Assembly (NCBI RefSeq): GCF_001465345.1
Contig: NZ_CP013655.1
Span: forward strand, 2,313,741-2,337,740
Source: Enterococcus rotai
GTDB lineage: Bacteria > Bacillota > Bacilli > Lactobacillales > Enterococcaceae
Reading direction: 5' to 3'
DNA: 24,000 nucleotides
Shown here: in pieces, positions 1,228-16,146 of the stretch
How the letters are laid out: each line of letters opens with the position of its first letter
Numbering within the stretch: position 1 is the stretch's first letter
Notes under the pieces: model-generated
What the model saw: the letters and a program-made list of their open reading frames with translations, nothing else
The model's database searches: none
Told to the model about the DNA's origin: nothing
Position numbers and translations under genes: made by a program

Positions 1228-1254
1228 AGAGGAACAAGTTTAACTTGTTCCTCT
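1228..1254 (+). terminator. Perfect 12-bp hairpin after the WxL gene (terminator or attenuator-like; no U-tract)
   Basis: AGAGGAACAAGT-tta-ACTTGTTCCTCT lies 21 nt after the stop at 1207. It is followed by GTGTAC rather than a T-run, so it may be a partial terminator or an RNA-stability element within the cluster. Confidence 0.45.
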
Positions 1255-1295
1255 GTGTACATAGAAAATATACTTTAGAATAAACGAGGTTAGTT

Positions 1296-2438
1296 ATGAA
1301 ATCACATATAGGATCTATAAAACAATGGGTAAGTATTTTTTTGAGTATCGTGGTTATTGGGCTCTTTTTTTTAAAAGCAGTTCCTGGTTATTCCGCTGAT
1401 AAGAATCCAGCAGGTGTTACAGGGTTTACGTACAGTATTACGTTTCCAGATAATCAAGTAAAAAAAGATTTAGGCTACTTTAAATTAAAAATGGAGCCAG
1501 GTAAAAATCAACAGATTTCCATCGCATTAAGTAATCCTGGTACTGAAAAAGTGACGATTGACGTTAAATTAAATGGGGCAAAGACGAACCAAAACGGTGT
1601 GATTGAATACGGTGAATCAACAATTAAAAACGATCCATCCGTACAATTTGATTTTACCGATATTGTCACTGGACCAGAATCAGTTGAGCTAGCACCAGGA
1701 GAAACCAAGAATCTTGATTTGACCATTCAAATGCCAGAAACAAGTTATGATGGAGTGATTGCTGGTGGTATCCAGTTGATGAGAGCAGATCAAAATGGCA
1801 CCACTTCTAATGAAGGCGGCTCAAAAATCATTAACCAATATGCCTATGTGATTGGTGTTGTACTACAAGAATCAGAAAAAGCTATTGCACCAGATTTAAA
1901 ATTGAACAGTGTGAAAGCTGGCCAAAGCAATTATCGCAATGCTATTTTTGTGAATTACTCTAATGTGATGGCAGCGTATTTAGATAATATGACTGTTGAA
2001 GTTCAAATCACAGAGAAAGGGAAAGAGACTGTTCTATATGAACGCAAACAAACCGCAATGAGAATGGCACCAAATTCCTTTATTGACTTTCCTGTCAGTA
2101 TGAACGGTGAGCGGATGGTTGCAGGAGATTATGTAGCAAACATTCTCGTGACCTCTGGCGATAAAAAATGGAAATGGACCAAAGACTTCAACATTTCAGA
2201 TAAAGATGCGAACAAATTCAACGAGCGAGATGTTGGTTTAGTGCAAGAAAAAGGGCTGGACTGGAAATTGATCGCCCTAATCGTTGTTGGTATTTTAGCC
2301 TTAATTATCCTAATTTTCGTGATTATTCGCATACGTAATAAGAAAAAACAAGAAAAAGAATTAGCCTTAAAAAAAGAACGTAAAAAGAAGAAACAACAAG
2401 GGTCATCTAATGGAAAAAGCAGTAAGAAAAAGGATTAG
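1296..2438 (+). CDS. DUF916/DUF3324-type cell-surface protein (WxL-cluster partner) with C-terminal TM anchor and polybasic tail
   Basis: GAGG RBS at 1286-1289. N-terminal signal/TM segment. FTYSITFPDNQ...GYFKLKMEPGKNQQISIALSN matches the DUF916 N-terminal pattern as I remember it. C-terminal TM helix LIALIVVGILALIILIFVII is followed by RIRNKKKQEKELALKKERKKKKQQ. Confidence 0.8.
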   Translation: MKSHIGSIKQWVSIFLSIVVIGLFFLKAVPGYSADKNPAGVTGFTYSITFPDNQVKKDLGYFKLKMEPGKNQQISIALSNPGTEKVTIDVKLNGAKTNQNGVIEYGESTIKNDPSVQFDFTDIVTGPESVELAPGETKNLDLTIQMPETSYDGVIAGGIQLMRADQNGTTSNEGGSKIINQYAYVIGVVLQESEKAIAPDLKLNSVKAGQSNYRNAIFVNYSNVMAAYLDNMTVEVQITEKGKETVLYERKQTAMRMAPNSFIDFPVSMNGERMVAGDYVANILVTSGDKKWKWTKDFNISDKDANKFNERDVGLVQEKGLDWKLIALIVVGILALIILIFVIIRIRNKKKQEKELALKKERKKKKQQGSSNGKSSKKKD

Positions 2439-2460
2439 GAAAGTATAGGAGCTGTAGTGT

Positions 2461-3129
2461 ATGTCTGTTTTAGATTGGATTTTCATCATAGGGATAGCAC
2501 TGTCAATTGTTGCGCTCCTAGGGTCAGGCTATTTTTTAGTACAGTTTTTTCATAAACGTAGACTGCTAAAAAAACTTCCAAATAAGAAATTTAAAAATAA
2601 AAAGAAAAATAGAAAAATCGCACGAAAAAAACAGCAGTTGATGAAACAGAAAAAAAAGAGCGTACGCTTATTTTGGGTAATGGCAGTAATAACAGCTATT
2701 TTAGCTGGTGGGATGTCGTATCTTTCTTATTATCAGTCGATGAATTTGACAACGGAGGATTCAGATTCGGTTGTGAAAGGCTACTATCTATTGCGGGATT
2801 TTGAAGACCAGTTGATTATAGCTCGTGATAAAAGTGATGAGGAAGAAAAATTACAAAAAAACCTTCGTTACTTAGCCACCTCTATGGCAAGCTATGGGAC
2901 AAAAAAAGCGAGTGACGTCAATTCAGAAGAAGGTCAAATCACCTTGAATCGTTATTATAATTCAGTCAAGCAATTAGGGATGAATGCAAGTACGCAAACC
3001 AAAAACTTTTTCGGCAACCAAGAATTGGTGGATAGTTTTTTAGCCGATATCAAGAAAGCGCAAGTCTATGAAAAAGAAACTTTTGATTATTACAAAGTGA
3101 ATGAATCTGCTTTTAAAGAAGAAAAGTAA
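2461..3129 (+). CDS. Membrane protein of unknown function (two TM helices flanking a polybasic loop)
   Basis: GGAG lies 10 nt upstream of the ATG. TM1 is WIFIIGIALSIVALLGSGYFLVQFF, then HKRRLLKKLPNKKFKNKKKNRKIARKKQQLMKQKKK, then TM2 LFWVMAVITAILAGGMSYL, then a soluble helical C-terminal part. I recognise no family. Confidence 0.6.
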   Translation: MSVLDWIFIIGIALSIVALLGSGYFLVQFFHKRRLLKKLPNKKFKNKKKNRKIARKKQQLMKQKKKSVRLFWVMAVITAILAGGMSYLSYYQSMNLTTEDSDSVVKGYYLLRDFEDQLIIARDKSDEEEKLQKNLRYLATSMASYGTKKASDVNSEEGQITLNRYYNSVKQLGMNASTQTKNFFGNQELVDSFLADIKKAQVYEKETFDYYKVNESAFKEEK

Positions 3130-3148
3130 TCAGAGTGAGTGATTTTCG

Positions 3149-3826
3149 ATGGAGAAAAAATCAAAGCGCACAATAAAAAAGAAACCGACAACCGCAAGAA
3201 AAAAACGTCCTTCTCAAAAAGTACCAGCAAAAAAGATAGGAAACAAAAAAAGACCACACCATAATAAAAAGACCAAACGTAAAAAACAACCTGTCAAAAA
3301 CTATCTAAAAGAATTTATCGTTGCTATAAGTTTGAGTGTCGTATTGATACTTGTCATCAGTTCCTTTTTCCTGACGATCGTAACGGTTCATGGTTTTAGT
3401 ATGATCCCAACGTTACGAGAAAAAGATCAGGTCCTTGTTCAAAAAACAACTGGCTTCAAACGCTTTGATTTAGTTGCCTTTAAAAGTGGCAATGGGAACA
3501 CGCAAATTAGACGAATCATTGGTCTGCCAGAAGAAAAAATTGCGTACACGGACGATACACTTTTCGTGAATGACCAGCCAGTAGACGAAAAATTTATTAT
3601 GGATGAAATCAATGAAAGCCAACGCAACGGTAAAAATTATACAGAAGATTTCACGAATCGAACGTTAACTTCTGCTGTTGTGATTCCTGAGGGATACTAC
3701 TTGGTTTTGGGGGATAATCGACCGTATGCGACCGATAGTCGGCATTATGGTTTGATTGCAAAAGAGAATGTGATTGGGAAAGTTGCGATGCAGCTTTTGC
3801 CGTTTGGTGAGATGAAGAGTTTTTAG
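3149..3826 (+). CDS. Signal peptidase I (S26) homolog with polybasic N-terminal extension; catalytic Lys position occupied by Arg
   Basis: Box B GFSMIPTL retains the Ser nucleophile. Box D reads TQIRRIIGLPEE, where SipS-type enzymes have YVKRIIGLPGD. Box E is GDNRPYATDSRHYG. One TM helix follows about 50 Lys/Arg-rich residues. Confidence 0.8.
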   Translation: MEKKSKRTIKKKPTTARKKRPSQKVPAKKIGNKKRPHHNKKTKRKKQPVKNYLKEFIVAISLSVVLILVISSFFLTIVTVHGFSMIPTLREKDQVLVQKTTGFKRFDLVAFKSGNGNTQIRRIIGLPEEKIAYTDDTLFVNDQPVDEKFIMDEINESQRNGKNYTEDFTNRTLTSAVVIPEGYYLVLGDNRPYATDSRHYGLIAKENVIGKVAMQLLPFGEMKSF

Positions 3827-4016: not shown

Positions 4017-4313
4017 TTATTTGATGAAAACACTGTTGTCAGAGTGAGTAATTCTCCAAAAAACATAAAGTGAGTATATCGAGTACGCTATCAAAACTAC
4101 AAAAAATAGTTTGCTTAGATTTATCATAGAATTTCCTAAATCATAATTGATAGAAAACTCTTTTTGCAGTTTAAACTTTTCTTCCATTGTTAATGTTTCA
4201 GGGTCTTGAATAGGTAAAAAATTCAGTGTCAGAAAAGTTCCAACAACTTTCAAAACTATAAATAGACAACTAAGTGTAATGATTAGCAACTTATTATATT
4301 TTATGAAACTCAC
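4017..4313 (-). CDS. Small two-TM membrane protein (possible immunity partner of the upstream truncated ORF)
   Basis: The 98-aa ORF starts 13 nt downstream of the stop of 4326..4652 on the same strand. It has two hydrophobic helices (LLIITLSCLFIVLKVVGTFLTL and LFFVVLIAYSIYSLYVF). I recognise no family. Confidence 0.45.
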   Translation of the reverse strand: MSFIKYNKLLIITLSCLFIVLKVVGTFLTLNFLPIQDPETLTMEEKFKLQKEFSINYDLGNSMINLSKLFFVVLIAYSIYSLYVFWRITHSDNSVFIK

Positions 4314-4325
4314 TCCTGTCTTATC

Positions 4326-4652
4326 TTATCTTGACATAGATCTTACTATTTCAATTTTATAAGGTTTTATATATCCACGAGATTGCATAGCATAGCAATA
4401 GTTATTCCCAAAACCGACAGCAAAATTATTACTATATCCATTTGGTTCCCAAGCAAAATCAAATATATCAGTTACTTTTACAGTAGTAAAGTAATTTCCA
4501 TTTGCTTGTCGTTTATAGGACACTGTATAAGACACACCTCGTAAAGCTGTGAGTAAATGTCCACTTGTGAACGTATGTGACCCTGTGAAAGATCCTAAAA
4601 CTCTACCTCCTCGGAAAGCTTCAGCTTTTAAACGACCGTAGTAAGAGCGCAT
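4326..4652 (-). CDS. Hypothetical protein; probable 5'-truncated remnant of a larger gene
   Basis: The reading frame stays open upstream of the Met at 4652 as far as the stop at 4722-4724 (LPILGYFFFTNDTWAKIVDSEDL-M...). There is no start codon or RBS in that stretch. The open frame ends exactly at the left copy of the 4704-4837 direct repeat. Confidence 0.4.
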   Translation of the reverse strand: MRSYYGRLKAEAFRGGRVLGSFTGSHTFTSGHLLTALRGVSYTVSYKRQANGNYFTTVKVTDIFDFAWEPNGYSNNFAVGFGNNYCYAMQSRGYIKPYKIEIVRSMSR

Positions 4653-4703: not shown

Positions 4704-4837
4704 ATAACCGAGAATTGGTAATCATACTTGTCACATTTAGAGAATGTTTTCGAGTGAAGGAATGAGGAGCTAAAATACGGAAACGGTATGTTGCTGTATA
4801 TAATGGTGAAGTAGGAAAAAAGAGCATATTTTTGGAT
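4704..4837 (+). repeat. Left copy of a ~135-bp direct repeat (partner at 10912-11052)
   Basis: Hand alignment: ATAACCGA...TTGTCACATTTAGAGAATGTTTTCGAGTGAAGGAATGAGGAGCTAAAATACGGAAACGGTATGTTGCTGTATATAATGGTGAAGTAGGAAAAAAGAGCATATTTTTGGAT versus the 10912-11052 sequence. Identity is high from about 4727 onward, with a 7-bp length difference near the left edge. Confidence 0.8.
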
Positions 4838-4934: not shown

Positions 4935-4963
4935 TTTACATTGAGTTGTTTACGAATTACAAT
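4935..4963 (+). promoter_or_regulatory. Candidate sigma-A promoter of the LXG operon
   Basis: TTTACA, a 17-nt spacer, then TACAAT, about 70 nt upstream of the ATG at 5033. This is the only good -35/-10 pair I found in the AT-rich 4853-5030 spacer. Confidence 0.5.
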
Positions 4964-5032: not shown

Positions 5033-5320
5033 ATGCCAAAGGATATAAACAGTAATTCCGCAGTAGCACAAGCTGTCGCTACTTCTATAGCATCATCCGT
5101 GAGCTCCTTAAATCAAGGGACAACGATCACAAAAGATACCCAAACAACTGTTGCAGGCAATAGCAATGCGCAACAGGCTATCACGCAACTAACGACCTTT
5201 AACACCTCACTTGTCCAAGCCGTTACCCAAGCAAGTAACAATATCCGGTCAGTGGCAGCTGAATTCGAAGCAGTTGATCAACGAATCGCTCAAATGCAGT
5301 ATAACCAAATGCTTCCTTAA
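5033..5320 (+). CDS. Small helical T7SSb LXG-partner protein (TIGR04197/DUF3130, Lap1-like)
   Basis: AGGAGG RBS. The 95-aa Ala/Gln/Ser/Thr-rich helical protein has no Trp, so it is not a canonical WXG100/EsxA. It is the first gene of a three-gene unit ending in an LXG toxin, which is the arrangement described for Lap1-Lap2-LXG. Confidence 0.65.
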   Translation: MPKDINSNSAVAQAVATSIASSVSSLNQGTTITKDTQTTVAGNSNAQQAITQLTTFNTSLVQAVTQASNNIRSVAAEFEAVDQRIAQMQYNQMLP

Positions 5321-5340
5321 GCTGAAAGGAGGAATAAAGT

Positions 5341-5697
5341 ATGTCCAACCTTGAAGAAATCAACCAGCAAAAAATCCAACTCGAACGCGAACAAAAAAAA
5401 CTCGAAGATCTAAAACGTGACCTCAACCAAACAGAAGAACACTACGAAGAATATTTTTTCTATCAAAAGCAATTATTCAATGAATTACAAGAAGAATTTG
5501 CCCAAAGCCAGACAGATATGTTATATCAAGATATGGCCGAGCAAATCAACTGGCAAAGCCGAGGGGTTCAAGACTTTTTAGAAGAGCAACAGCAAGAACT
5601 AAAAAAACAAACAAGAGCATTAGAAGATCAACAAGAAGACTTACACTGGCAGGAAATAAAAACAAAAGAAGAAAGGTCGGAAAAGCATGAGTATTGA
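5341..5697 (+). CDS. Small coiled-coil T7SSb LXG-partner protein (DUF3958, Lap2-like)
   Basis: AAGGAGG RBS. The 118-aa protein is strongly Glu/Gln/Lys-rich and heptad-like (EINQQKIQLEREQKKLEDLKRDL...). Its stop overlaps the start of the LXG gene by 11 nt. Confidence 0.6.
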   Translation: MSNLEEINQQKIQLEREQKKLEDLKRDLNQTEEHYEEYFFYQKQLFNELQEEFAQSQTDMLYQDMAEQINWQSRGVQDFLEEQQQELKKQTRALEDQQEDLHWQEIKTKEERSEKHEY

Positions 5698-7087
5698 TAT
5701 GTACCTCGGTCAAGCGAGAAGCCAAGCATCCAGTGTTAAAAGTGCGTGTAGCCAATTAGCACAAGGCTATACGTCTTTGATGCAAAGTAATCAACAGTTT
5801 ATGAGCGCAGGCGAATTATCAAGTAAAGGCTATGACTCTGCCAAAGAATTCTTTGCGGCAGTGATCCAACCTTTAGTTCAAGGTGCCGAAGTAGGCGCAG
5901 AGATGACAGCAGAAGCTTGTCAAAAATTTGTGGATCAATATACATCTGAGGTCGATAGTATTGATTTGAAGTCAGATGACTTAGAAAGACGAATCCGACA
6001 AATCAATACGTCGATCCTGAATATGGAGAGTATTAATCGAGGCTTGCCAAAGCTTCCGACTGGAACGAATCCGTTGGAACAAGCCAATCGGCGGATTATT
6101 GAATCGTTAGAGACGACGAAACGTGATTTAGAGCAGAAGTTAGAGAAATTAATGACGTTTAATGGGACATCGCCTGCTATTTTTGATGGAGTGAATAGTT
6201 TTTATTCGACATTGTCGCAAGGCTTGCAGCAGGCGAATAGTGGGTTTAATCCTGCGACTGGGACGTTTTCGCTTCCGAAAGGGAAAGCGTTGGATTGGAC
6301 GAAAACAGTACAAACAGCTTACCAAAAAGCAAATCAGAAAAAGCTAGATAGTTTAATGAAATTACCTTATTCAATAGAAAATGCAATTAAGGTCTATGAG
6401 ATAGCTCAAAAAGATCCATCAATGAGGTTAGACGAAAAAGCGATTAAATGGTTTAGAGATCATAAAGATGATCTACAAGGATTATTTGTTGATTTTAGTA
6501 TGTCGACAATAGAAGAAACACTTAAACATAATGGAGATGATCTTGCACTTTCTCTCGGTTTGATGTTTGGGACATTATACAAAAATGCACCATATGGTTC
6601 ATGGATGGGCGCAGTAAACCAAGGATTAACAGCTGGTATTACAAGTTCTGCTAATAGTATGTTCAATGCCACGACAGACTTTTTAGGGTCTACAGCCAAA
6701 GCAACTTCACTTGGCTTAGGAATAGGAACCGTATTGGGTCTTGCCTCTGGCGATTCATTTGGTCAAGCTTTTGCAAGTTCTGCTGTTACGACTGGAGTTT
6801 CTTTAGGAATAAATAGTTTAGTTACAACAGGTTTTGCAGTAGCAGCTGTGGCGACACCTGTTGGCTGGGCCGCTGTTGGAGTTGCTGCTGTCGTCACTGT
6901 TGCAACCACTATTGCATTCAATAAAAACTTTTTAGGAATGAAAGATTTAGCAAAAAATACGGGGAATTTGATCGATGATGGTTTGGACTGGACTGGAAAA
7001 AAAGTAAATAATATTGGGCAAGGGATTAAGCAGGTACGCAGTGCGGTTGATGGTGCTTGGAATTCTCTAACCAATTGGAGTTGGTGA
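5687..7087 (+). CDS. LXG-domain polymorphic toxin (T7SSb substrate) with hydrophobic glycine-zipper-like C-terminal domain
   Basis: The N-terminus MSIDMYLGQARSQ...LSSKGYDSAKEFFAAVIQPLVQG resembles LXG domains (compare B. subtilis YobL ...FSGKGASNIKAFYHDHVG). The C-terminal ~115 aa is Gly/Ala/Val/Thr-rich (GLGIGTVLGLASG...AVAAVATPVGWAAVGVAAVVTVATTIAF). The gene is translationally coupled to the preceding one. Confidence 0.8.
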   Translation: MSIDMYLGQARSQASSVKSACSQLAQGYTSLMQSNQQFMSAGELSSKGYDSAKEFFAAVIQPLVQGAEVGAEMTAEACQKFVDQYTSEVDSIDLKSDDLERRIRQINTSILNMESINRGLPKLPTGTNPLEQANRRIIESLETTKRDLEQKLEKLMTFNGTSPAIFDGVNSFYSTLSQGLQQANSGFNPATGTFSLPKGKALDWTKTVQTAYQKANQKKLDSLMKLPYSIENAIKVYEIAQKDPSMRLDEKAIKWFRDHKDDLQGLFVDFSMSTIEETLKHNGDDLALSLGLMFGTLYKNAPYGSWMGAVNQGLTAGITSSANSMFNATTDFLGSTAKATSLGLGIGTVLGLASGDSFGQAFASSAVTTGVSLGINSLVTTGFAVAAVATPVGWAAVGVAAVVTVATTIAFNKNFLGMKDLAKNTGNLIDDGLDWTGKKVNNIGQGIKQVRSAVDGAWNSLTNWSW

Positions 7088-7089
7088 AA

Positions 7090-7722
7090 ATGATCGAAAA
7101 AACTACAAATAAGCGATATAAACATTTTAATTATAAAAATGAAAGTATTTTACTAGATATGGATAGTAATAAAATAACTTGGTTTTTCCCTTTTTTAGTT
7201 TGGTTTCTTCCTGTTAAAGGATATAGAAATACTCCCCTACCATCTGATAAGACAGGGGAGAAAAAAACAAAAGGTGGTATAGTTTTTTCAATACCGATTT
7301 TATCAATCATTCTTATCCGTCTGACAGATGGTGGTTTTGGTGATTTATCAAAACTTTCAAATTATCGAGAAATAATTATGGTTATACTGTTTAGTTCAAT
7401 GATTTTGGTCTATTTAATTCGCTATTTTTGGAGATACAAAAAAAATAACTTACTTATGCAAGATAAAGAAATAGTTTACTTGAAATTTAGCTTTAATAAA
7501 GGAATTATAGGAAAGTACGAATATATCTATAAAGTCTTTATTCTTACAATAGTTTGTTACGGGATTGTTATTTTTTTTAGTAGCTACTTTATAAATGACT
7601 ATCCTAATATTATTATTTTACCGCTCATTCTTCTTGTGGAATACTTTTTATTGATTATTAATACTACAATTGCACATCCAGAGAAAGACTGTACATTTGT
7701 TGTTACTAAAGAAAAAAAATAA
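7090..7722 (+). CDS. Polytopic membrane protein, immunity candidate, paralog 1 (DUF443/TsaI-like by analogy)
   Basis: I prefer ATG 7090 over the ORF-track start at 7057. GGAG at 7077-7080 lies 9 nt upstream, and the ATG follows the toxin stop (7085-7087) by 2 nt. N-terminal motif TNKRYKHFNYKNESILLDMDSNKITWFFPFLVWFLPVKGY, then 4-5 hydrophobic helices. Confidence 0.75.
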   Translation: MIEKTTNKRYKHFNYKNESILLDMDSNKITWFFPFLVWFLPVKGYRNTPLPSDKTGEKKTKGGIVFSIPILSIILIRLTDGGFGDLSKLSNYREIIMVILFSSMILVYLIRYFWRYKKNNLLMQDKEIVYLKFSFNKGIIGKYEYIYKVFILTIVCYGIVIFFSSYFINDYPNIIILPLILLVEYFLLIINTTIAHPEKDCTFVVTKEKK

Positions 7723-7758
7723 ATATGAAATCACTGACATTTGGAATACTCTAATTGA

Positions 7759-8376
7759 TTGGGGTTGTTAATAATATTTAGTGGAAGATTTAAAGAAGTA
7801 GAGGTAAATAACAAAAAAATGTTAGTAGATTTAGATACATCCAAACTGGTATGGATAGTACCTTGGGCTGTATGGTTATTTCCGAAAAATGCTTATTGTT
7901 ATGATGCTGTAAAAGAAGATAATAAACAAAAAAAAAAGAGTTCGTCAAAAGGATTGATTGTATTAACTAGTTCAATTTTAGCCAGTGCTTTGATTAGGAA
8001 TACGGATAAAAGTTTTGGTGAATTGTCTTTCTTACAAGGGCATCCTATTGAGCTATTCCTTTGCCTTATAGTTGTTACAGCAGCTGTTTTTTACTACAGA
8101 TGGTATAGTTCAAATCGTGAGTTAAAAAGACTTAGTGATATTAAAAAATATGAAATAGTAGTGTCAAAAAAAACTAGTGGACTGATGAGCCAATTGTTAA
8201 AAGTATGTGTAGGAATCTTTATATCAATTGTAGCGTTGTATTTCTTTGGAAGTATCTTTATTTTTAAAGGAAATATTTTAGGATTAGGCGTATATTACTT
8301 TTTTTTGATAAATATTTTGTTTAGAAACTATAGTGAAAAAATTCCTGAAACTATACATTTATCTCTAAAAAAATAA
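7759..8376 (+). CDS. Polytopic membrane protein, immunity-family paralog 2 (start codon uncertain, possibly decaying)
   Basis: It shares the family motif (GRFKEVEVNNKKMLVDLDTSKLVWIVPWAVWLFPKNAY). The position equivalent to the family start codon is ATA (7774-7776). The only upstream in-frame starts are TTG 7759 and 7765, and neither has an SD. Confidence 0.5.
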   Translation: MGLLIIFSGRFKEVEVNNKKMLVDLDTSKLVWIVPWAVWLFPKNAYCYDAVKEDNKQKKKSSSKGLIVLTSSILASALIRNTDKSFGELSFLQGHPIELFLCLIVVTAAVFYYRWYSSNRELKRLSDIKKYEIVVSKKTSGLMSQLLKVCVGIFISIVALYFFGSIFIFKGNILGLGVYYFFLINILFRNYSEKIPETIHLSLKK

Positions 8377-8406
8377 AACCTGTGAGATTGTTTGGAGCTG
8401 GTGAAT

Positions 8407-9045
8407 GTGATAGTAAAAACCGAAAATAAACGTTATAAGCAATTGACCTATAATGGTCAAAAAATACTATTAGATATGGATAGCAACAAATTAACTTGGT
8501 TATTCCCTTTCTTAGTCTGGTTTTTCCCAGTTAAAGGATATATGAACGAAGAACTGCCTATTTTTAAAGAAAGTAATTCAAAAGGAAAATCATCTGGAGC
8601 AATTATAATATCTTCGTCTATTTTAGCAAGTGTTTTGATTAGAATGACGAATAAAGGATTTGGTGATCTCAGGGGATTTTCAAATCCACAATTAGTTGCA
8701 GGAACAGTATTATTTTGTTCTATGGTAATAGTTATACTTATTCGCTATTTTTATAGATACAGAAAAAATCACGTGTTACTTTCGAATGAAAAAGTTGTTT
8801 TAATTAGATTTAAATTTATGGATGGTTTTAAGAGCAAATATAACTATATTGGGAAAGTGTTACTAGTTGTCATTTTTTGTTATGCAGTTGTGTTCTATTT
8901 TAGTATTACTTTTTTAACGTCTTATCTTAATATTATCCTTATCCCAGTTATATGTATGGTTGAATATCTAATCTCAATTGCTAACACAACGATTGAGCCA
9001 CCAGAAACGGATGTAGAATTGTTGATTGAAATAAAAGATGAATAG
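8407..9045 (+). CDS. Polytopic membrane protein, immunity candidate, paralog 3
   Basis: I prefer GTG 8407 (GGAG at 8394-8397, 9 nt upstream), the same geometry as paralog 1; the ORF track starts at TTG 8392. It is closest to paralog 1: ENKRYKQLTYNGQKILLDMDSNKLTWLFPFLVWFFPVKGY. Confidence 0.7.
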   Translation: MIVKTENKRYKQLTYNGQKILLDMDSNKLTWLFPFLVWFFPVKGYMNEELPIFKESNSKGKSSGAIIISSSILASVLIRMTNKGFGDLRGFSNPQLVAGTVLFCSMVIVILIRYFYRYRKNHVLLSNEKVVLIRFKFMDGFKSKYNYIGKVLLVVIFCYAVVFYFSITFLTSYLNIILIPVICMVEYLISIANTTIEPPETDVELLIEIKDE

Positions 9046-9069
9046 AAATTAAAACAGGGGGAACAAAGT

Positions 9070-9375
9070 ATGCAGACATTAGGAACAATCTTATATTTAA
9101 AAGATGGACGAGCTAAAGTAATGATAATAAATAGAGGACCTATCGTGGAAAAAGAAGGGATATCATTTTTATATGATTACGCGGGTTGCGTGTATCCCAT
9201 CGGAATGAATCCAGAACAAGTTTTATATTTTAATGAAGAGAATATCGATAAAGTTTTATTTGAAGGATATCGTGATGAAGATGAACAACGTTTTGAAGAA
9301 CTTTATAAAAAATCTGTTGAAGATTTAGGAGATTCTGTGATGAAAGGATTGCCTAATTTAAATCTTAAAAGCTAA
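9070..9375 (+). CDS. DUF4176-like small protein (recurrent T7SSb/LXG-locus accessory protein)
   Basis: GGGGG RBS lies 8 nt upstream. The 101-aa protein reads LGTILYLKDGRAKVMIINRGPIV...YDYAGCVYPIGMNPEQVLYFNEENIDKVLFEGY, which matches my memory of the DUF4176 pattern (YP.G......FF....I). Confidence 0.6.
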   Translation: MQTLGTILYLKDGRAKVMIINRGPIVEKEGISFLYDYAGCVYPIGMNPEQVLYFNEENIDKVLFEGYRDEDEQRFEELYKKSVEDLGDSVMKGLPNLNLKS

Positions 9376-9442
9376 ATAAAGTGCTCATCTTATATGTAAT
9401 GGAAAGGGAAAATAGCGGTATAGTAGGGCTATATGTTGAGAT

Positions 9443-10075
9443 ATGATGAAAGTTTATGAATCTACAAATAAAAGGTACAAACTAGCTGAACTAGATACAA
9501 ACTATTATTTAATTGATATGGATAGCAATATCTTGGCTTATTTTCTCCCTACTTTAGTTTGGTTCTTCCCTTTTAGAGCAGTTGAGATAGATAAAGGAAT
9601 GTTTAATAAGCTAGTGTCTAATGGTCAAAAAGAGTATGGTATTATGGCTACTGTTGCTATATCGATGTTTGTTGGAAGACCAGTTTACAAACTATCGACT
9701 ATTTTTTTTCAAGAGCTTGATGTTACTTCTGAACTAGATAAACGTGCAATTTATTTACTGATAACATTTGGCTGTTTGCTTATTTTTAGATCTATTATTA
9801 TGTTCTACAATAAGCATAAGCTTAGAAAAGTATTATTTGGAGTAGGTTACAATGTAACAATTGAGATTGAGAAAGAGAGTATTTCTACATATTACAAGAA
9901 GCATAGTATTATTCGATTGATTTTGATAGTTATGATTGCAGTAGGGATAATCTATATAACGATTGTTTATCTGTTTGATTTCATTGTAGTTTTTATTTTA
10001 AGTGTACTTATTTTTATATTTATGAATAGAAGTTATCTATTTCCTTACGGTAGTCGTTTTCATATAAAAGACTAA
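9443..10075 (+). CDS. Polytopic membrane protein, immunity-family paralog 4
   Basis: STNKRYKLAELDTNYYLIDMDSNILAYFLPTLVWFFPFRA followed by hydrophobic helices. The RBS is weak. Confidence 0.65.
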   Translation: MMKVYESTNKRYKLAELDTNYYLIDMDSNILAYFLPTLVWFFPFRAVEIDKGMFNKLVSNGQKEYGIMATVAISMFVGRPVYKLSTIFFQELDVTSELDKRAIYLLITFGCLLIFRSIIMFYNKHKLRKVLFGVGYNVTIEIEKESISTYYKKHSIIRLILIVMIAVGIIYITIVYLFDFIVVFILSVLIFIFMNRSYLFPYGSRFHIKD

Positions 10076-10198
10076 GAGATTGGAAGAATTAAACGTACAA
10101 ATAAGAGTCAATAACTTTATGGTTGTTGACTCTTCCTATATACACGGTACAGACGATTAGACTTCTCCAAAACTAAAGTAAAACAATATTAAAATGGA

Positions 10199-10915
10199 TT
10201 GGATGTGATAAAGCTGGAGTTTACCGCTGCAAAACCTCTGTATAATAACCATCGTTATAATGTAATACATTCTCAATCAAACTACTATCTAATTGACAAA
10301 GATAGTTCATTCTTAGGTTATTTCTTTTTCGGATTAAATTGGCTAATGCCACAAAAAGCGTACATCTTAAATAAAAGCCAAGCTGACGATTTGCTAGCTC
10401 ATCGAGTTGAAACTAAAAATAGAAAAGTGTTAAGCAGCATTTTAATAGTGCTAATGATTTTAATTTTTAATATAGTATTACCCAAGTTATTAACTCTTTT
10501 TTATGCTTCAACAAGTATAGAAAATAGCCGAATTATTGAAATTGGAAATACAGTTATGATGATTCCGCCAAGTCGGTACATATTTATGCTGTTACTTATA
10601 ACACTATTTCCTGCTTTGATAATTCGAGTATTCTGGTCTTTTCAATCAAAGAAATCCATGCTGAAAATAATTAAATATGATGAATTGTCTGTTACTCAAA
10701 TTAAGGTGAGACCAGGTTCGTTAGTTGACACTTTAAAAAAATTAGGTGTGTACTTTATGTTCCTATCATTAGTGATTATAGCGGGATTTTTGCTTGTGAT
10801 AACGGAAGGCTATTGGATTATCTCTTTATGTTTGGTGATGTTGTTTTTATTATTTCTATTAACCAATCATCTATCAATAAATACAGGGAAATACAAAATA
10901 TATCAAAAGAGATAA
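10199..10915 (+). CDS. Polytopic membrane protein, divergent immunity-family paralog 5
   Basis: The start is TTG 10199 or GTG 10205. NNHRYNVIHSQSNYYLIDKDSSFLGYFFFGLNWLMPQKAY keeps the family pattern, and multiple TM helices follow. Confidence 0.6.
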   Translation: MDVIKLEFTAAKPLYNNHRYNVIHSQSNYYLIDKDSSFLGYFFFGLNWLMPQKAYILNKSQADDLLAHRVETKNRKVLSSILIVLMILIFNIVLPKLLTLFYASTSIENSRIIEIGNTVMMIPPSRYIFMLLLITLFPALIIRVFWSFQSKKSMLKIIKYDELSVTQIKVRPGSLVDTLKKLGVYFMFLSLVIIAGFLLVITEGYWIISLCLVMLFLLFLLTNHLSINTGKYKIYQKR

Positions 10916-11052
10916 CCGATCAATAGCTATTGATAGACATATTTGTCGCATTTGGAGAATGTTCTCGAGTTAAGGAGTGAGGAGCTAAAATGTGGAAAAG
11001 ATATGTTGCTGTATATAATGGTGAAGCAGGGGAAAAGAGTATATTTTTAGAT
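10912..11052 (+). repeat. Right copy of the ~135-bp direct repeat (partner at 4704-4837)
   Basis: It spans the last codons of paralog 5, the intergenic region with its RBS, and the first 21 codons of 10990..11553. It is collinear with 4704-4837. Confidence 0.8.
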
Positions 11053-11553
11053 ACAGTAACAAAAAAGTTAGTAGTAGTTGAAATTGAGATGACTTCTTAT
11101 AGATCAACGATATTGTCAGGATTTTTAGGAGTGACTATTTATTATGTATTTGGGAATGTACTTTTTAAATCTTCTTTAAGTCCTGTTACTTTAATAGCAC
11201 TAATTTTATTTATTGGTTGTTTAGGTGGTGCTTTCTTTAATTTGTTAATAAATAAGATTGCTAATAGTGATAAAAATAAGTTGAATTATTTAACTAACGT
11301 TAGCGAAGATGAACTAAAAGCGTATCTTGTTAAAGGAAGAAAACAAATGAGGAAGAATTTTCTACTGATTATTTTTCTTTTTGTTATGGTAATACTCTCG
11401 TTGCTTCCAATTTATTTTAAGGAATATTCGCTATTGTTGCTTCTTGCTTCAATTTTTTTCACAACACTGTTTATATTCTTTATATGTATTGTTTCACCAG
11501 TTAAGAGGATAAAGGCTTATAGATATATTGAAAAAATGAAGTGTCTATCATAA
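10990..11553 (+). CDS. Four-TM membrane protein, distant member or neighbour of the immunity family
   Basis: AAGGAGTGAGGAG RBS. The N-terminus WKRYVAVYNGEAGEKSIFLDTVTKKL echoes the KRY..Y.....LD....K pattern of the paralogs. Four hydrophobic helices follow. Confidence 0.65.
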   Translation: MWKRYVAVYNGEAGEKSIFLDTVTKKLVVVEIEMTSYRSTILSGFLGVTIYYVFGNVLFKSSLSPVTLIALILFIGCLGGAFFNLLINKIANSDKNKLNYLTNVSEDELKAYLVKGRKQMRKNFLLIIFLFVMVILSLLPIYFKEYSLLLLLASIFFTTLFIFFICIVSPVKRIKAYRYIEKMKCLS

Positions 11554-11599
11554 AAAATGATAATAATTAACAATCTAGAATTAGAAAGAAGGGTTTGAG

Positions 11600-13597
11600 A
11601 TGGGGATTTATAAACATGATACAGCTCCTTTTTGTTATGAAAATATGGATAGATTTAAGTTCACGAGGAGTGAATTAAATGTGTGTTCAAAACTTATAGA
11701 TGTAATGTCCAAAGGGGAAGGGCTTTATGTATTTTCTGGTATGAGAGGTACAGGGAAAACAAGTATAAAAGAATTAGCTTTTTTAAAGATGGAAAAATCT
11801 AGTTTAACTGACTCAGAAAAGATAATAAAAATAAATATTCCTTTTTATAGTGATGATAATAATTTAAGAATACTTATTATTAAGGCACTTTATGATTACT
11901 TTAGTAAGAAGTCTGACATTAGTATACTTGAAAAATTAAAAGATTTACTATTGCTTTTTGAGAATCAAATAAAGGAAAGTAATATTTTTTCTCAAAGTGA
12001 TAAAAATGAAACGGATGTAGAGACAAAAACCTCATTTTTTAATAGTATTTATAATAAGTTTGGCTTGAGATTTTTAGGTAATTGGATTCCATTACAAGTA
12101 AAAAGTGAATTTAGTAATTCTAAAACAGACTCCTTAGAAAATTCCGAAAAGCAAAAATTTTCTAGGGAGGAACAAGTTGCAAAGGAGTTTAGCAAAGAAA
12201 TTACAATTCAAGAGAAGCATGTTCAACTAGAAGAATTTATGAGAAGTATATTGAAAAAGTATAGAATAGTTTTAATTATTGATGAGATAGATAAACTTGA
12301 ACATAGTAAGGTTGAAAAAATAATTTTACAAAATAAGGGAATGTTTTTCAATAAAAATTTGGTGACACTACTTATTACTGATTTATCTAGTGGGCTTTAT
12401 TTGGAAGAGCACTCAAAAGAATATGTAAGTGATTTTATATATTTAAATAACCTAACATTTGAGGAGTATGCATTAAAAGCAATTAATTTAGAATTAGAAC
12501 GAGGATATAGGTTATATAGTTTGATAGATGGTTATTATCAAACATGCGGAAATAATAGAAAGATGATTAACTCGTTAATTAATAGTAATGAAAAGTTTTC
12601 TCTTTCAAATTCATTGTCGCTATTTTATTTACATCATTCAAGTTATTTTGAAGGCTTGAAATATGAATACAAAGATATAGTTACTTTGTTTTATATAGAG
12701 TTTTTAGAACTCCTTTCCATACTTGAAGAACTTTCCTCAAATGAAATTTTTGAGTTTTTAGAAGATTTTATTTTGAGATACAGGCTTGATAACTTGAAAA
12801 TAAAATTAATTTTAGAAAAATTAATTTTAGAGTTAAAGAAGTGTTTTCATATTTATCCTTATATTTTTATGGAAGATATAAGTAGAAGTGTAACAAATTT
12901 TGAAAAAAATAAAACAATTATAGGATTACTAGAAAGTGTAGAATATAGGGTGTATGATCAATCATCTAAAATTTTCAAAAAAGCATTTCTTTATAATAAC
13001 TACAGGATATTTGAGAAAAATTATATAACTTTTCTTAAAGACTGGTCAAATGAAAAGCATGCCTATCTGGGGTCGGAAGCTGAACAAAAATTTTTGAATT
13101 ATTATTTAGAATGTTGTGGTTTGTTTATTGATGCAACAAATTTAGATTACTATAGTGCTAAATTAGAATTTATAATGCATCACAGTTTTAACAAAGAATC
13201 TAGTGCTGAGAAGGATATAGAAATCAATAAAAACGAGATTTTAGGAGTAATAGTTTTCTATCCATATTTTGAAGAGTTAGATGAAAATTATAAACCGTTG
13301 TATAATTGCTACATAATAAAAAGAAATTTTATGAATGAATTGATGGCATATTCGTATGTAGGTTATCCGGGATTAACTTCACATAAATCAAGTGATAGAA
13401 ATAAATTTATTCCATTTTTGAAAAAACAAGGAGTTCCGTATGTTGAAATTTCAAATGACTTTTTTAGTAAGAAAGAAAATTTTTGGTCTGTCGGTTTGGA
13501 GGATGAGTACGGTGATGAATTGGAGAAATTTATTGTTAATAAAACTAGACCGTATTTGAAAGACTGGTTGATTAAACTATGTGATAGAGTTTTCTAA
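11600..13597 (+). CDS. P-loop NTPase (AAA/Arch_ATPase-like N-terminal domain) with ~350-aa uncharacterised C-terminal region
   Basis: Walker A is GMRGTGKTS, preceded by the F.R.EL......L pattern. Walker B is IVLIIDEIDKL. A lid-like segment reads IYLNNLTFEEYALKAI. The gene is very AT-rich. There is no terminator between it and 10990..11553. Confidence 0.7.
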   Translation: MGIYKHDTAPFCYENMDRFKFTRSELNVCSKLIDVMSKGEGLYVFSGMRGTGKTSIKELAFLKMEKSSLTDSEKIIKINIPFYSDDNNLRILIIKALYDYFSKKSDISILEKLKDLLLLFENQIKESNIFSQSDKNETDVETKTSFFNSIYNKFGLRFLGNWIPLQVKSEFSNSKTDSLENSEKQKFSREEQVAKEFSKEITIQEKHVQLEEFMRSILKKYRIVLIIDEIDKLEHSKVEKIILQNKGMFFNKNLVTLLITDLSSGLYLEEHSKEYVSDFIYLNNLTFEEYALKAINLELERGYRLYSLIDGYYQTCGNNRKMINSLINSNEKFSLSNSLSLFYLHHSSYFEGLKYEYKDIVTLFYIEFLELLSILEELSSNEIFEFLEDFILRYRLDNLKIKLILEKLILELKKCFHIYPYIFMEDISRSVTNFEKNKTIIGLLESVEYRVYDQSSKIFKKAFLYNNYRIFEKNYITFLKDWSNEKHAYLGSEAEQKFLNYYLECCGLFIDATNLDYYSAKLEFIMHHSFNKESSAEKDIEINKNEILGVIVFYPYFEELDENYKPLYNCYIIKRNFMNELMAYSYVGYPGLTSHKSSDRNKFIPFLKKQGVPYVEISNDFFSKKENFWSVGLEDEYGDELEKFIVNKTRPYLKDWLIKLCDRVF

Positions 13598-13821
13598 ATA
13601 AGAATATAAGATAAAATATTGTGTGTAAGTTAAAATTATTTGAAGGAGCAGAAACTTTATATTCACGAGAGTAATCAAATATTTTTAGGAAAAAAGCTGA
13701 AAATGGAAAAATAGTTACACAATCTAGCAAGTTTTTACTATCAAATTTTAACTAACTGTACTTTATTCTTTTTTCGATGTATAATTTAACCAATTATTTA
13801 AAACATACTGGAGTGAAAAAA

Positions 13822-14550
13822 ATGACTGATGAAAAAAATATGAATCATAACAATGAAGAAATTATAGAAAAGGCAAAAAAATTTTTTAGAGAAATAATTG
13901 CTGAAAATCATGTGAAAAACACAGAGAAGCTAGAAAATATAAAGGAATTTAAAGTTAATCCATTTACTCATAAATATTTGGCAAACTTTTTGACGGGAAA
14001 TGATGACCCCAAAAGCTTGGCGAAAGCATTAATATATCCTAGAGTTTTGGGTACTTCAATTACCACATCATTTGGACAAAATTTACAAACTTTTGTCAAT
14101 ACTACACTTGAAGGATATGGGTCAACAACAACAGGAATGGATATTGAATTTATAGATAAATTAGACGGAAGAAAAAAATATTGCCAAATCAAAGCTGGAC
14201 CCCAAACAATAAATAAAGATGATGTTACAACTATAAGAAACCATTTTCGAGATGTTATTAATCTAGGTCGTACTAATGGTATTCCTATTGCAAATATGGA
14301 CTGTGTTGTAGGGGTTTTTTATGGAACTTATAATGATTTAAGCGCATTCTATAAGAATTTAGCTGAAGATTATACTGTATTAGCTGGAAAAGATTTTTGG
14401 TATCATTTAACTGGAGACGAGGACTTTTATAATAAGCTCACAGATGCAATTGGGGAAATAGCTAATGAATTTGATGGAACTGAGCTTTTAGAAAAAACCA
14501 TTAATCAGTTAGCGATGCAGTTGCAACAGGTTGATGGTATAGATGAATAA
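13822..14550 (+). CDS. Putative type II restriction endonuclease (PD-(D/E)XK-like)
   Basis: I prefer ATG 13822 (GGAG at 13810-13813) over the ORF-track start at 13777. That start lies inside a TATAAT box at 13780-13785. Candidate catalytic motif GMDIEFIDKLDGRKKYCQIKAG (D-x14-Q-x-K). The gene is convergent with a C5 methyltransferase and shares a terminator with it. A TdeIII/Eco47II-type family is only a guess. Confidence 0.55.
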   Translation: MTDEKNMNHNNEEIIEKAKKFFREIIAENHVKNTEKLENIKEFKVNPFTHKYLANFLTGNDDPKSLAKALIYPRVLGTSITTSFGQNLQTFVNTTLEGYGSTTTGMDIEFIDKLDGRKKYCQIKAGPQTINKDDVTTIRNHFRDVINLGRTNGIPIANMDCVVGVFYGTYNDLSAFYKNLAEDYTVLAGKDFWYHLTGDEDFYNKLTDAIGEIANEFDGTELLEKTINQLAMQLQQVDGIDE

Positions 14551-14556
14551 ATAGTA

Positions 14557-14597
14557 AAGAAGCAGTCATTTGTTGTAAATACAAAAGACTGCTTCTT
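14557..14597. terminator. Bidirectional terminator hairpin between the convergent R and M genes
   Basis: AAGAAGCAGTC (14557-14567) pairs with GACTGCTTCTT (14587-14597). An inner TTTGT/ACAAA pairing extends the stem. Confidence 0.7.
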
Positions 14598-14600
14598 ACT

Positions 14601-15935
14601 TTAAAATTGATTTAAGTAATCTATAACAGCCAGCCCCACATATTTAGCTAATTTAACGGGAACGGCATTCCCAATTTGCTTATATATACTTGTGACGCTT
14701 CCTTCGAACTTCCAAGAATCTGGAAAACTTTGAATCCTGGCATATTCTCTAACTTTGAATGGACGGGTTTCAGAGGGGTGGCAACGTTCTGTTTGTTTTT
14801 GACTAGGAGAAGTTGTTAAAGTTAGAGAAGGCTCATCCCAAGAAATTCTTCGAGCCATACCTCTTTTACCGCCACCAGAGTGATAAGAAGCACCCATGTA
14901 ATCTTTTGCAATATTTTCGGGAAGATTAACCCAGCAACCTCCTGGGGGAACTAATTCTAAAACTTTTTTTTTCTTTTCTGAATAGGGCGTTCCTTGACTA
15001 TCAGGTACATTTTTTAAAGCGTCTTTTAGTACGGGCTTTGTTGTTGAAATCTCTGGGAAAGCAAAAGGTTTCTTTTGCTTTTTAATCAGATCATTTCTGA
15101 TTCCAATTATTACAATGCGCTCTCTTTTTTGTGCAACATCGTAATTCCAAGCATTTAATACGTTCCAATATACTGTATAACCAGATTGTGAGAAGACATC
15201 AAGCATTGTCTCGAGAGTTCTACCCTCATCATGATTTACCAAACCTTTTACATTTTCGGCTATAAAAACTTTGGGAGTTAGCTCATTTAAAATTTGAGAA
15301 TATGGATAAAATAATGTTCCACGTATATCTTCTAGTCCATGTCTTTTACCAGCGTAACTAAAACTTTGACAAGGATACCCACCGGATAAAACATCTAACT
15401 CTTTATCAAGAGTGAATAATTCGTGATTTTTTATTCCATTATTTGCAATGTTTACAATATCCCCTTGAATCACATTCCAATGAGGTCGATTTTTCTTTAA
15501 AGTTTTACAAGCATCTTTATCTAATTCAATAGCACCTATCGAGTTAAGACCAGCTTCTTCTAATCCTAAAGAAAGTCCACCGGCACCGGCAAATGTTTCA
15601 AGAACTGTGTAATCTTTTTGAGGCGAAATATTTTTAACATCAGTATATCTATCCAATTTATATTCATATCTATTTATATTATTAGCAATAGATTCATCAG
15701 TAATTAATTCTAGCTGTTCCATGTGCTCACCAGTTTCTTCAATTATTAACTCCTTAAAAGGAATTTTTAACTCATTCATTAGATTTAGAACGTTTGTTTT
15801 TATAGGACAAAAGTCATCTGATAACATCTGTGAAAGTTGACTTTTGCTCATTCCAATTCGTTCAGCAAGCTCAGTTTGAGTAGCAATATTATTCTTTTTC
15901 ATAGCCAATTTTACTATATCTTTATTGATAAACAT
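14601..15935 (-). CDS. DNA (cytosine-5)-methyltransferase with N-terminal XRE-type helix-turn-helix domain
   Basis: Motif I TFAGAGGLSLG, motif IV GGYPCQSFSYAG, motif VI ENVKGL, motif VIII QKRERIVIIG, motif IX REYARIQSFPD, motif X GNAVPV. The N-terminal ~65 aa IATQTELAERIGMSKSQLSQMLS is a classic HTH. Confidence 0.92.
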   Translation of the reverse strand: MFINKDIVKLAMKKNNIATQTELAERIGMSKSQLSQMLSDDFCPIKTNVLNLMNELKIPFKELIIEETGEHMEQLELITDESIANNINRYEYKLDRYTDVKNISPQKDYTVLETFAGAGGLSLGLEEAGLNSIGAIELDKDACKTLKKNRPHWNVIQGDIVNIANNGIKNHELFTLDKELDVLSGGYPCQSFSYAGKRHGLEDIRGTLFYPYSQILNELTPKVFIAENVKGLVNHDEGRTLETMLDVFSQSGYTVYWNVLNAWNYDVAQKRERIVIIGIRNDLIKKQKKPFAFPEISTTKPVLKDALKNVPDSQGTPYSEKKKKVLELVPPGGCWVNLPENIAKDYMGASYHSGGGKRGMARRISWDEPSLTLTTSPSQKQTERCHPSETRPFKVREYARIQSFPDSWKFEGSVTSIYKQIGNAVPVKLAKYVGLAVIDYLNQF

Positions 15936-15979
15936 AGAAGATACCCCTTCGATAAGTTTAAAATATATTTAACAACCCA

Positions 15980-16008
15980 ATTATAATGGAGTTCAAATGC
16001 CAAGTCAA
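15980..16008 (-). promoter_or_regulatory. Sigma-A promoter of the methyltransferase gene
   Basis: The minus strand reads TTGACT, a 17-nt spacer, then TATAAT. A 5' UTR follows containing TTAAA-N5-TTTAA and a GAAGGGG RBS before the ATG at 15935. Confidence 0.6.
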
Positions 16009-16146
16009 CATTAAAGTTATAGTAGAGAATTATATAGTGTACTTTTTTTAAAATTTAATGTAATTCTATTTAAACTTTAGAGTTGTAAAAACGAACATTT
16101 AGACTGTATTATTTTTTTTAATGGGTTATACTAATAAATAGTATAA

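Follow-up and report, generated by a model that had tools for sequence, protein, structure and literature searches.

We found, in 24,000 nucleotides (nt) of Enterococcus rotai DNA (assembly GCF_001465345.1, contig NZ_CP013655.1, positions 2,313,741 to 2,337,740 of the forward strand; hereafter the window), a co-directional plus-strand gene block at 5033-11553 whose array of five membrane-protein genes (P1-P5) very probably represents the immunity side of a TspA/TelD-type toxin locus of the type VIIb secretion system (T7SSb), built from cassettes and with P1, the first gene behind the toxin, as the cognate immunity gene. An earlier note, made from the sequence alone, had described this region as a row of diverged membrane-protein paralogues mirroring the DUF443/TsaI arrays next to tspA in Staphylococcus aureus and collecting immunity to non-self toxins, with a sixth open reading frame (ORF) as a faint further copy. 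The array reading stands on both counts, DUF443 membership and a full-length S. aureus homologue of the upstream toxin, and the collecting of non-self immunity is supported by the comparative data. The sixth ORF (P6) is not a paralogue; it appears to belong to a separate family tied to another toxin type.

P1-P5 are members of DUF443 (PF04276) and of TIGR01218 (Gpos_tandem_5TM, "tandem five-TM protein"; TM, transmembrane), the family of TsaI and TipD. All five exceed the curated cut-offs, scoring 45.5 (P1), 51.2 (P2), 49.6 (P3), 49.3 (P4) and 76.0 bits (P5) against PF04276 (gathering score (GA) 26.2 bits), and 52.9, 52.8, 57.7, 62.7 and 99.6 bits, in the same order, against TIGR01218 (cut-off 35 bits). 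Proper alignments of the paralogues uphold the N-terminal signature that the note had picked out (NKRYK ... LLDxDS ... FPxLVWFxP) as a single conserved block followed by a variable remainder: mean pairwise identity is 40% over P1 residues 1-45 and 16-25% over the rest of the protein. P1 and P3 are indeed the closest pair, because they share 48% identity over 207 amino acids (aa) with E=8e-67 in pairwise BLASTP, versus E values between 3e-15 and 6e-4 for the remaining pairs. DNA repeats among the paralogues are restricted to their 5' ends, P1/P3 excepted. Hydropathy, which is not a dedicated topology predictor, indicates 2-5 TM segments per paralogue. An AlphaFold2 (AF2) model of P1, of moderate confidence (mean predicted local distance difference test score, pLDDT, 65.7), has a small beta-meander at the N-terminus, then an aromatic stretch forming a short helix, and four long helices. 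A Foldseek search of this model against the PDB gave no match at E<=0.001, a result to which we attach no weight at such model confidence. Neither the toxin sequence nor the DUF443 profile retrieved a relative from the PDB.

Gene content and layout of the locus

The ORFs were listed and translated across the window. The five DUF443 genes are all present on the plus strand where the note had placed them; their run is not uninterrupted, as a small DUF4176 gene lies within the array. The features of the locus are as follows.

4714..4837, +, truncated copy of the P6 upstream region and first ~21 codons (blastn)
5033..5320, +, Lap1, 95 aa, TIGR04197 / DUF3130, SACOL2603 family
5341..5697, +, Lap2, 118 aa, DUF3958 (PF13125)
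5687..7087, +, TspA-like LXG polymorphic toxin, 466 aa (full-length homology)
6812..7087, +, hypervariable toxin tip, residues ~376-466 (allele comparison)
7090..7722, +, P1, 210 aa, DUF443 clade 3
7738..7776, +, toxin 3' end in decay (..W N T L ..), joined onto the P2 start (junction alignment)
7759..8376, +, P2, 205 aa, DUF443 clade 2
8385..8406, +, toxin 3' end remnant ('tgg agc tgg tga' = W S W stop), immediately before P3
8407..9045, +, P3, 212 aa, DUF443 clade 3
9070..9375, +, small DUF4176 protein, 101 aa, PF13780
9443..10075, +, P4, 210 aa, DUF443 clade 4
10103..10134, between P4 and P5, inverted repeat with 13-nt arms (repeat search)
10199..10915, +, P5, 238 aa, DUF443 clade 8
10990..11553, +, P6, ~4-TM protein of an unannotated non-DUF443 family, 187 aa

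Within Enterococcus, the toxin is matched over its full length by homologues of up to 84% (E. ureilyticus), and it matches the S. aureus 'T7SS effector LXG polymorphic toxin' with 32% identity, 100% coverage and E about 1e-58. We took the S. aureus homologues to be TspA from species, length, annotation and the DUF443 array in S. schweitzeri, where the toxin orthologue is followed by 12 DUF443 genes, an arrangement that agrees with the one described for tspA (PMC7456083). An exact-sequence look-up of the toxin gave no match. The protein comprises an LXG region (residues ~1-207), a conserved middle (208-375) and a hydrophobic domain rich in glycine and small residues (~300-420); residues 301-420 are 54% G/A/S/T and hold 22.5 [GAS]xxx[GAS] motifs per 100 residues, and hydrophobicity peaks at 385-403. 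The tip, presumed to be the specificity determinant, consists of the most hydrophobic hairpin and then an amphipathic tail ending NWSW. G343, G347, G359, P391, G393, N414, G417, D430 and the terminal W-x-W are conserved in the alignment of the toxin with its homologues.

Two small genes precede the toxin. Lap1 matches TIGR04197 (E=1.6e-23, 83.1 bits, cut-off 26 bits), shows a ratio of non-synonymous to synonymous substitution rates (dN/dS) of 0.02 and has near the C-terminus of its translation an FxxxD export motif, here 'FEAVD'; LapT1 and the role of this motif were described in PMC11322744. Lap2 matches PF13125 (DUF3958; E=6.4e-11, 43 bits, cut-off 26.3 bits; dN/dS 0.06-0.17). Such partners have been defined as Lap1/Lap2 for TelC/TelD (PMC9600955) and as LapT1/LapT2 (PMC11322744). 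The DUF4176 gene (PF13780, E=2.9e-25, 88.5 bits) is no paralogue of the array genes and closes what we call the type-A module (defined below); its product shows 100% aa identity to that of E. ureilyticus JZO78 and 95% to that of Enterococcus sp. 5H (dN/dS 0-0.06). Small DUF4176 proteins are toxin-specific chaperones (PMC12478183, PMC11322744), and their genes are enriched among DUF443 genes (PMC12478183). The G+C fraction changes from about 0.40 in the toxin gene to 0.28-0.30 over the array. A promoter and terminator scan of the window yielded sites no commoner than expected by chance; one TTTACA-17-TACAAT site lies upstream of Lap1 (4935-4963).

Start contexts differ along the array. P1 begins with ATG 2 nt past the toxin stop, with a GGAG Shine-Dalgarno sequence. 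The sole in-frame start of P2 is TTG 7759, which lacks a Shine-Dalgarno sequence; the ancestral ATG, used in the JZO78 orthologue, is ATA in the window. P3 starts with GTG 8407, and P5 with TTG 10199 or GTG 10205. P2, P4, P5 and P6 appear to be maintained as coding genes, because dN/dS across them is 0.14-0.31 (P2 0.23; P4 0.31; P5 0.14-0.19) at dS 0.08-0.31.

Toxin alleles, proposed immunity partners and probable displaced cassettes

The comparison set consisted of 23 loci from a genome scan and gene-context look-ups, including those of Enterococcus sp. 5H (L001), E. moraviensis (L002), E. ureilyticus LMG 26676 (L003) and JZO78 (L016), E. rivorum (L004 and L006) and S. schweitzeri (L007). Homology to E. 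moraviensis and E. ureilyticus LMG 26676 ends at window position 6309, about toxin residue 207, the boundary between LXG and the C-terminal domain (CT), and the toxins of these two carry a different, 'type-B' CT. Eight loci carry type-A toxins (the window, L001, L016, L015, L005, L017, L019 and L020), among which residues 208-375 are 52-98% identical. The window's tip is 98% identical to that of L001 and 43-60% identical to the remaining type-A alleles, whose residues 208-375 are 52-90% identical. Compared with L016, DNA identity in the toxin declines stepwise (97 > 87 > 76 > 54%) from about position 6495, and the gap in homology between the window and L016, 7012-7752, is exactly the toxin tip plus P1. 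In L016 a P2 orthologue (87%) directly follows the toxin and P1 is absent; P1 is 98% conserved in L001, the one genome with the same tip.

Clades were drawn from a clustering of 35 DUF443 proteins. Clade 3 (P1 and P3) occurs in all eight type-A loci and in none of six others, and this pairing is the same whether loci are found via the toxin or via P1. Clade 2 (P2) and clade 1, which has no member in the window, are found in type-A loci only. The earlier note had named no cognate paralogue; sequence comparison now points to P1 as the likely one, because it adjoins the toxin and co-varies with the toxin tip. P3 is 92-96% conserved in L001 and L016 and is the sole clade-3 gene of L016; it probably confers immunity to a sister allele such as the JZO78 tip. 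P4 belongs to clade 4, which includes the first genes after type-B toxins, and is 42-47% identical to L002_1 and L003_1, both directly behind such toxins, suggesting an orphan immunity gene related to theirs. P5 (clade 8) is 96% identical to L002_3 of E. moraviensis and 40-41% identical to L004_a of E. rivorum, which follows an orphan toxin CT fragment, and may likewise be an orphan immunity gene. These relationships of P4 and P5 support the suggestion that immunity to non-self alleles is being collected.

Tandem non-identical DUF443 copies lie directly behind a tspA-like LXG toxin in the window and 12 related loci. The note had proposed to compare arrays across strains; even close strains differ in array content, with 1, 2, 3 or 5 DUF443 genes, pseudogenes included. 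An additional clade-1 gene (~700 bp) separates P3 from the DUF4176 gene in L016, the L001 array holds several pseudogenes, L015 has two DUF443 genes plus P6, and L019 is a minimal module of a single clade-3 gene and then DUF4176.

In junction alignments, the final codons of the toxin gene recur in decayed form upstream of both P2 (..WNTL..) and P3 (WSW-stop). Their local-alignment scores, 29 for 7738..7776 and 28 for 8385..8406, were attained by 0 of 300 shuffles each, and a 151-nt repeat of 78% identity (7075-7225 and 8392-8542) likewise links the toxin's 3' end with the remnant before P3. P2 and P3 would thus be displaced cassettes, because remnants of a toxin 3' end remain upstream of them. 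Toxin-tail remnants were also reached by 0/300 shuffles at displaced clade-3 genes in L005 and L017 and at one tsaI gene, the fourth, of S. schweitzeri. It therefore seems that displacement of CT/immunity cassettes is a general feature of the TspA-like/DUF443 family.

Some details of the compared loci can be recorded here. The S. schweitzeri remnant lies upstream of position 14079 of L007. In E. rivorum L004, orphan TspA-like toxin C-terminal fragments occur at 12390-12557 and 17075-17491, downstream of a main toxin with a different CT, and each is directly followed by a DUF443 gene and then DUF4176. In the other E. rivorum locus, L006, the LXG/Lap1/Lap2 scaffold is conserved (77% LXG identity), but the toxin (9974-11515) ends in a bacterial EndoU nuclease domain instead of the membrane toxin, with no DUF443 genes downstream. 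One LXG scaffold is thus reused with unrelated toxin domains.

P6 shows the KRY...IFLD motif in which the note had seen a faint echo of the paralogues, but no detectable homology accompanies it. There is no Pfam match at E<=0.1, the TIGR01218 score is 14.8 bits against a cut-off of 35, BLASTP against P1-P5 gives E>=0.68, a hidden Markov model (HMM) of the window paralogues does not match, and hhalign of the P6 family against DUF443 reaches 39.6% over 21 columns. Weak TIGR01218 matches do occur in seven of eight P6 family members, but decoys shuffled locally with the TM layout kept equal the real score in 3-41% of trials, and distant family members give scattered sub-threshold TM matches with no consistent Pfam signal. 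We therefore rejected the idea of a degenerate DUF443 gene: BLAST, window HMM, Pfam and hhalign are negative, and the decoys account for the TIGR01218 signal. The AF2 models of P6 and P1 share an N-terminal beta-meander and helical hairpins, at a confidence too low to indicate homology.

The P6 family is small: grouping at 90% identity leaves 8 clusters, and a set of 1.8 billion proteins holds 26 representatives. A P6-type gene is the first after the LXG toxin in E. rivorum L004 and in L021; in both toxins the CT is an extended glycine zipper that terminates in ..GSAFG, and the P6-type gene is succeeded by one for DUF4176. A distant member stands behind a type-D toxin tail (..GLGTVFG) in L022, and L023 has a P6-like gene with no adjacent toxin. 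P6 is probably an orphan immunity gene of a separate family, directed at such 'type-D' glycine-zipper LXG toxins. Both P5 and P6 are 92-96% conserved into E. moraviensis.

In the mechanism that we propose, Lap1 and Lap2 would bind the toxin LXG domain, as their homology to LapT1/LapT2 and the TelD system suggests, and the small DUF4176 protein would stabilise the toxin for export, by homology to SACOL2601 and the TelD system. The glycine-rich hydrophobic CT would insert into the competitor's membrane and depolarise it, as TspA does, and DUF443 proteins in the membranes of the producer and its kin would neutralise the toxin, an activity shown only for TsaI and TipD. P1 would be the partner of the resident tip, brought in as a 'toxin tip + immunity' unit whose recombination displaced the older cassettes P2 and P3 downstream. 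P3 would probably protect against the sister allele of JZO78, P4 and P5 would match other CT types in related strains and species, and P6, from its other family, would match another glycine-zipper LXG toxin. Overall, the strain would be expected to resist its own toxin and several non-self alleles.

The same array could have a different cognate gene, namely P3, or P1 and P3 redundantly, or P2. We regard this as possible, though on the doubtful side. It would fit the conservation of P3 in L001 and L016 and its position as the only clade-3 gene of L016, as well as L005 and L017, where the clade-3 gene is not first after the toxin, and L016 and L005, where the first gene is of clade 2. However, it is P1 that comes and goes together with the toxin tip and has the best start context, and P2 has lost its start codon in the window and is disrupted in L001 despite the same toxin. 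It is unlikely that some DUF443 proteins, those of clades 1 and 2, instead have an accessory role, binding the toxin's hydrophobic domain inside the producer or hetero-oligomerising with the clade-3 protein. Clades 1, 2 and 3 do recur together, in shuffled order, in type-A modules of distant species (window, L016, L005, L017 and L020), and a 6-TM protein, Gallo_0563, co-purifies with TelE by way of analogy (bioRxiv 10.64898/2026.03.12.711312). Yet the L019 module makes do with a clade-3 gene alone, the toxin is kept despite the damage to P2 (in the window and in L001) and the lack of a clade-1 gene in the window, and E. coli is protected by one TsaI or TipD on its own (PMC7456083, PMC9600955).

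That P2, P4, P5 and P6 are non-functional relics of recombination, of no present benefit, is likewise improbable. P2 has no canonical start, and the orthologues of P2, P4 and clade 1 are fragmented in Enterococcus sp. 5H, but the ORFs are intact in the window and L016, and both the dN/dS values given above and the conservation of P5 and P6 into E. moraviensis argue for maintenance. We give hardly any credence to the idea that the five genes have nothing to do with the toxin and encode transporters or other housekeeping membrane proteins. In its favour, DUF443 proteins still lack a defined biochemical mechanism and a solved structure; against it, DUF443 genes stand directly behind LXG toxins or their fragments in every locus examined, their number and type vary between close strains within conserved flanks, and two members are experimentally proven immunity proteins (PMC7456083, PMC9600955).

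Several points weigh against a cassette-built immunity array with P1 as the cognate gene. The co-variation of P1 with the tip is based on only two genomes sharing that tip, and the dN/dS of P1 and P3 relative to L001 is 0.5-0.9, calculated from very few substitutions. Clades 1 and 2 accompany type-A modules across species, which simple 'orphan' status leaves unexplained. Toxin-tail remnants upstream of P4 and P5 looked plausible by eye and were withdrawn after failing the shuffle test; those upstream of P4, P5 and P6 are not significant. P2, lacking a canonical start, may not be expressed. The toxin scores below threshold against Pfam LXG (15.4 bits, GA 26.5); its residues 1-207 are 42% identical to the staphylococcal orthologue, and PF04740 is present in the S. 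aureus homologues. The window, to which that search was confined, contains no T7SSb core gene such as EssC. The assigned roles in immunity, toxicity and secretion all derive from homology and genomic context.

Repeats, array growth and neighbouring genes

A direct repeat of 124 nt (4714-4837 and 10929-11052; 85.5% identity, no gaps, blastn E=1.6e-38) brackets the whole 6.1-kb module from Lap1, Lap2 and the toxin through P1-P5. Its left copy, a dead 5' fragment of P6 in which ATG has become ATA, ends shortly before the Lap1 promoter region. The arrangement also exists in L016, L003 retains a 51-nt relic, and L001, L002 and L015 lack it. The repeats could be the trace of a Campbell-type integration or a route for module excision.

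Taken together, the locus may record how tsaI-type arrays grow, a joint reading that we offer tentatively, at somewhat less than even confidence. 'Toxin tip + DUF443' cassettes would recombine into the 3' end of the resident toxin; older immunity genes would shift downstream, tagged by remnants of the old toxin stop region; the last ~90 residues of the toxin and the clade-3 DUF443 proteins would form the specificity pair; the array would have captured P6, an immunity gene of an undescribed family for a distinct glycine-zipper LXG toxin; and the whole module could be gained or lost by way of the 124-nt direct repeats, copies of the P6 5' end.

Smaller repeats lie between P4 and P5. The inverted repeat at 10103-10134 has 13-nt arms (AAGAGTCAATAAC / GTTGTTGACTCTT) and a 6-nt loop, lacks a T-tract and is conserved upstream of P5 in L002 and L016; it is possibly a module boundary or a weak terminator. 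The stretch 10091-10118 weakly resembles a DUF443 5' end (..TNK..) and could be a deletion scar.

The locus is flanked on the left by WxL/DUF916/signal-peptidase genes and on the right by a 174-aa gene and a giant surface-protein ORF. These flanks are 89-96% identical to those in E. moraviensis, E. ureilyticus and Enterococcus sp. 5H; they are conserved across species while the toxin CT and the array are swapped. On the far left (1-3826) is a WxL-domain/DUF916 (WxLIP) cell-surface cluster with a type-I signal peptidase, 82-95% conserved in related species. The minus-strand ORF at 4326-4652 corresponds to the C-terminal 108 codons of a gene for a 289-aa secreted protein that is intact in L016 (7973-8842), about 667 bp of this gene being missing from the window; it is followed by a conserved gene for a 98-aa two-TM protein (4017-4313, minus strand). 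Neither has a Pfam family, and the two may form another toxin/immunity-like pair.

Between P6 and the conserved right flank lies a low-G+C island (0.24-0.35; 11537-16989) encoding a 665-aa KAP-family P-loop NTPase, an EcoO109I-type restriction endonuclease, an unannotated 266-aa ORF and, on the minus strand, a C5 cytosine methyltransferase with an N-terminal helix-turn-helix. PADLOC gave no match for the KAP-type ATPase or the 266-aa ORF. The island is present in L016 and absent from L002, and L003 and L015 have other methylase/helicase islands. The site appears to be a hotspot for defence islands. The right end (18408-24000, plus strand, continuing past the window end) is a giant ORF of >1864 aa, which encodes a large surface protein of Gram-positive type: it has a signal peptide, and domains of the DUF11, DUF7927, DUF7619 and Cna-B-like kinds recur in it. 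Few ORFs are listed at this end because of it. An rRNA operon considered at 17-24 kb on account of this scarcity of ORFs proved to be wrong: the window has no rRNA or other Rfam matches anywhere, and the giant ORF occupies this part.

Relation to known systems

The kind of system is already known from TspA/TsaI and TelD/TipD, and the general picture of polymorphic toxin systems is unchanged. TsaI and TipD, both DUF443 proteins, neutralise TspA and TelD (PMC7456083, PMC9600955), and enterococcal homologues, including those of TspA (PMC7456083), have been mentioned (PMC7456083, PMC11322744); in the literature we found no dedicated description of these enterococcal arrays. What is added here is the cassette architecture, a reasoned cognate assignment, the reclassification of P6 and the recognition of the DUF4176 chaperone gene. 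The TspA/TsaI and TelD/TipD system is thereby extended to environmental enterococci, in a compact locus that unites targeting factors, toxin, immunity genes and chaperone in one operon and would be convenient for reconstitution. As predicted partners, P1 is assigned to the tip shared by the window and 5H, P3 to that of JZO78, P4 to toxins of type B and P6 to those of type D; if these pairs are true, JZO78-type cells, which lack P1, would be sensitive to the window toxin, and the window strain would resist both. Cassette displacement is suggested as a route for the evolution of DUF443 arrays, whose growth in S. aureus Garrett et al. 2022 left unexplained (PMC9484751).

Swapping of toxin tips together with the adjacent immunity gene is also seen in contact-dependent inhibition (cdiA-CT/cdiI), Rhs and the EsaG/TipC arrays of T7SS. 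There, as proposed for the window, displaced cassettes pile up downstream, and former junctions can be recognised by what is left of toxin 3' ends; both the mode of secretion and the protein families are unlike those of the window. EsaG and TipC arrays evolve through recombination between conserved blocks in paralogues (PMC9484751), whereas the window paralogues share only short 5' similarity and bear the signature of displacement at the toxin 3' end. For the pairing of P6-type genes with type-D toxins in L004, L021 and L022, the nearest analogy is TelE-TipE of S. gallolyticus (bioRxiv 10.64898/2026.03.12.711312), in which an LXG toxin that acts on membranes through a glycine zipper has the gene for a polytopic membrane protein directly behind its own. 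TipE itself is soluble and belongs to DUF5085, the 6-TM partner being Gallo_0563, whereas P6 has ~4 TM segments and no Pfam family; the likeness of P6 to Gallo_0563 is an analogy by description.

TelD-TipD-DUF4176 of S. intermedius GC1825 has the same order of lap1, lap2, LXG toxin, DUF443 and small DUF4176 gene (PMC9600955), with two DUF443 genes versus five in the window, and its small DUF4176 protein is required for toxin stability (PMC12478183). The TelD toxin domain is only about 13% identical to that of TspA (PMC9600955); the window toxin is TspA-like, and its comparison with TelD is indirect.

The closest counterpart is TspA-TsaI of S. aureus (PMC7456083, PMC9484751). Both there and in the window, an LXG toxin with a hydrophobic CT is followed by tandem non-identical DUF443 genes, lies at a distance from the T7SS core genes and has toxin fragments or remnants inside its array. 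TsaI is predicted to have five TM segments, N-out and C-in, and only an N-terminal block of the immunity proteins is conserved, the first ~75 residues in S. aureus TsaI (PMC9484751). The differences are those of another genus: the toxin domains are weakly similar beyond a few Gly/Pro/Asn positions, and the window array has five DUF443 genes versus 2-16 and also holds the non-DUF443 P6. Lap1, Lap2 and DUF4176 share the operon in the window, whereas they occupy a distant locus in most S. aureus strains (PMC11322744); at the tspA2 locus of S. aureus SID53, the gene order is the same as in the window (PMC11322744).

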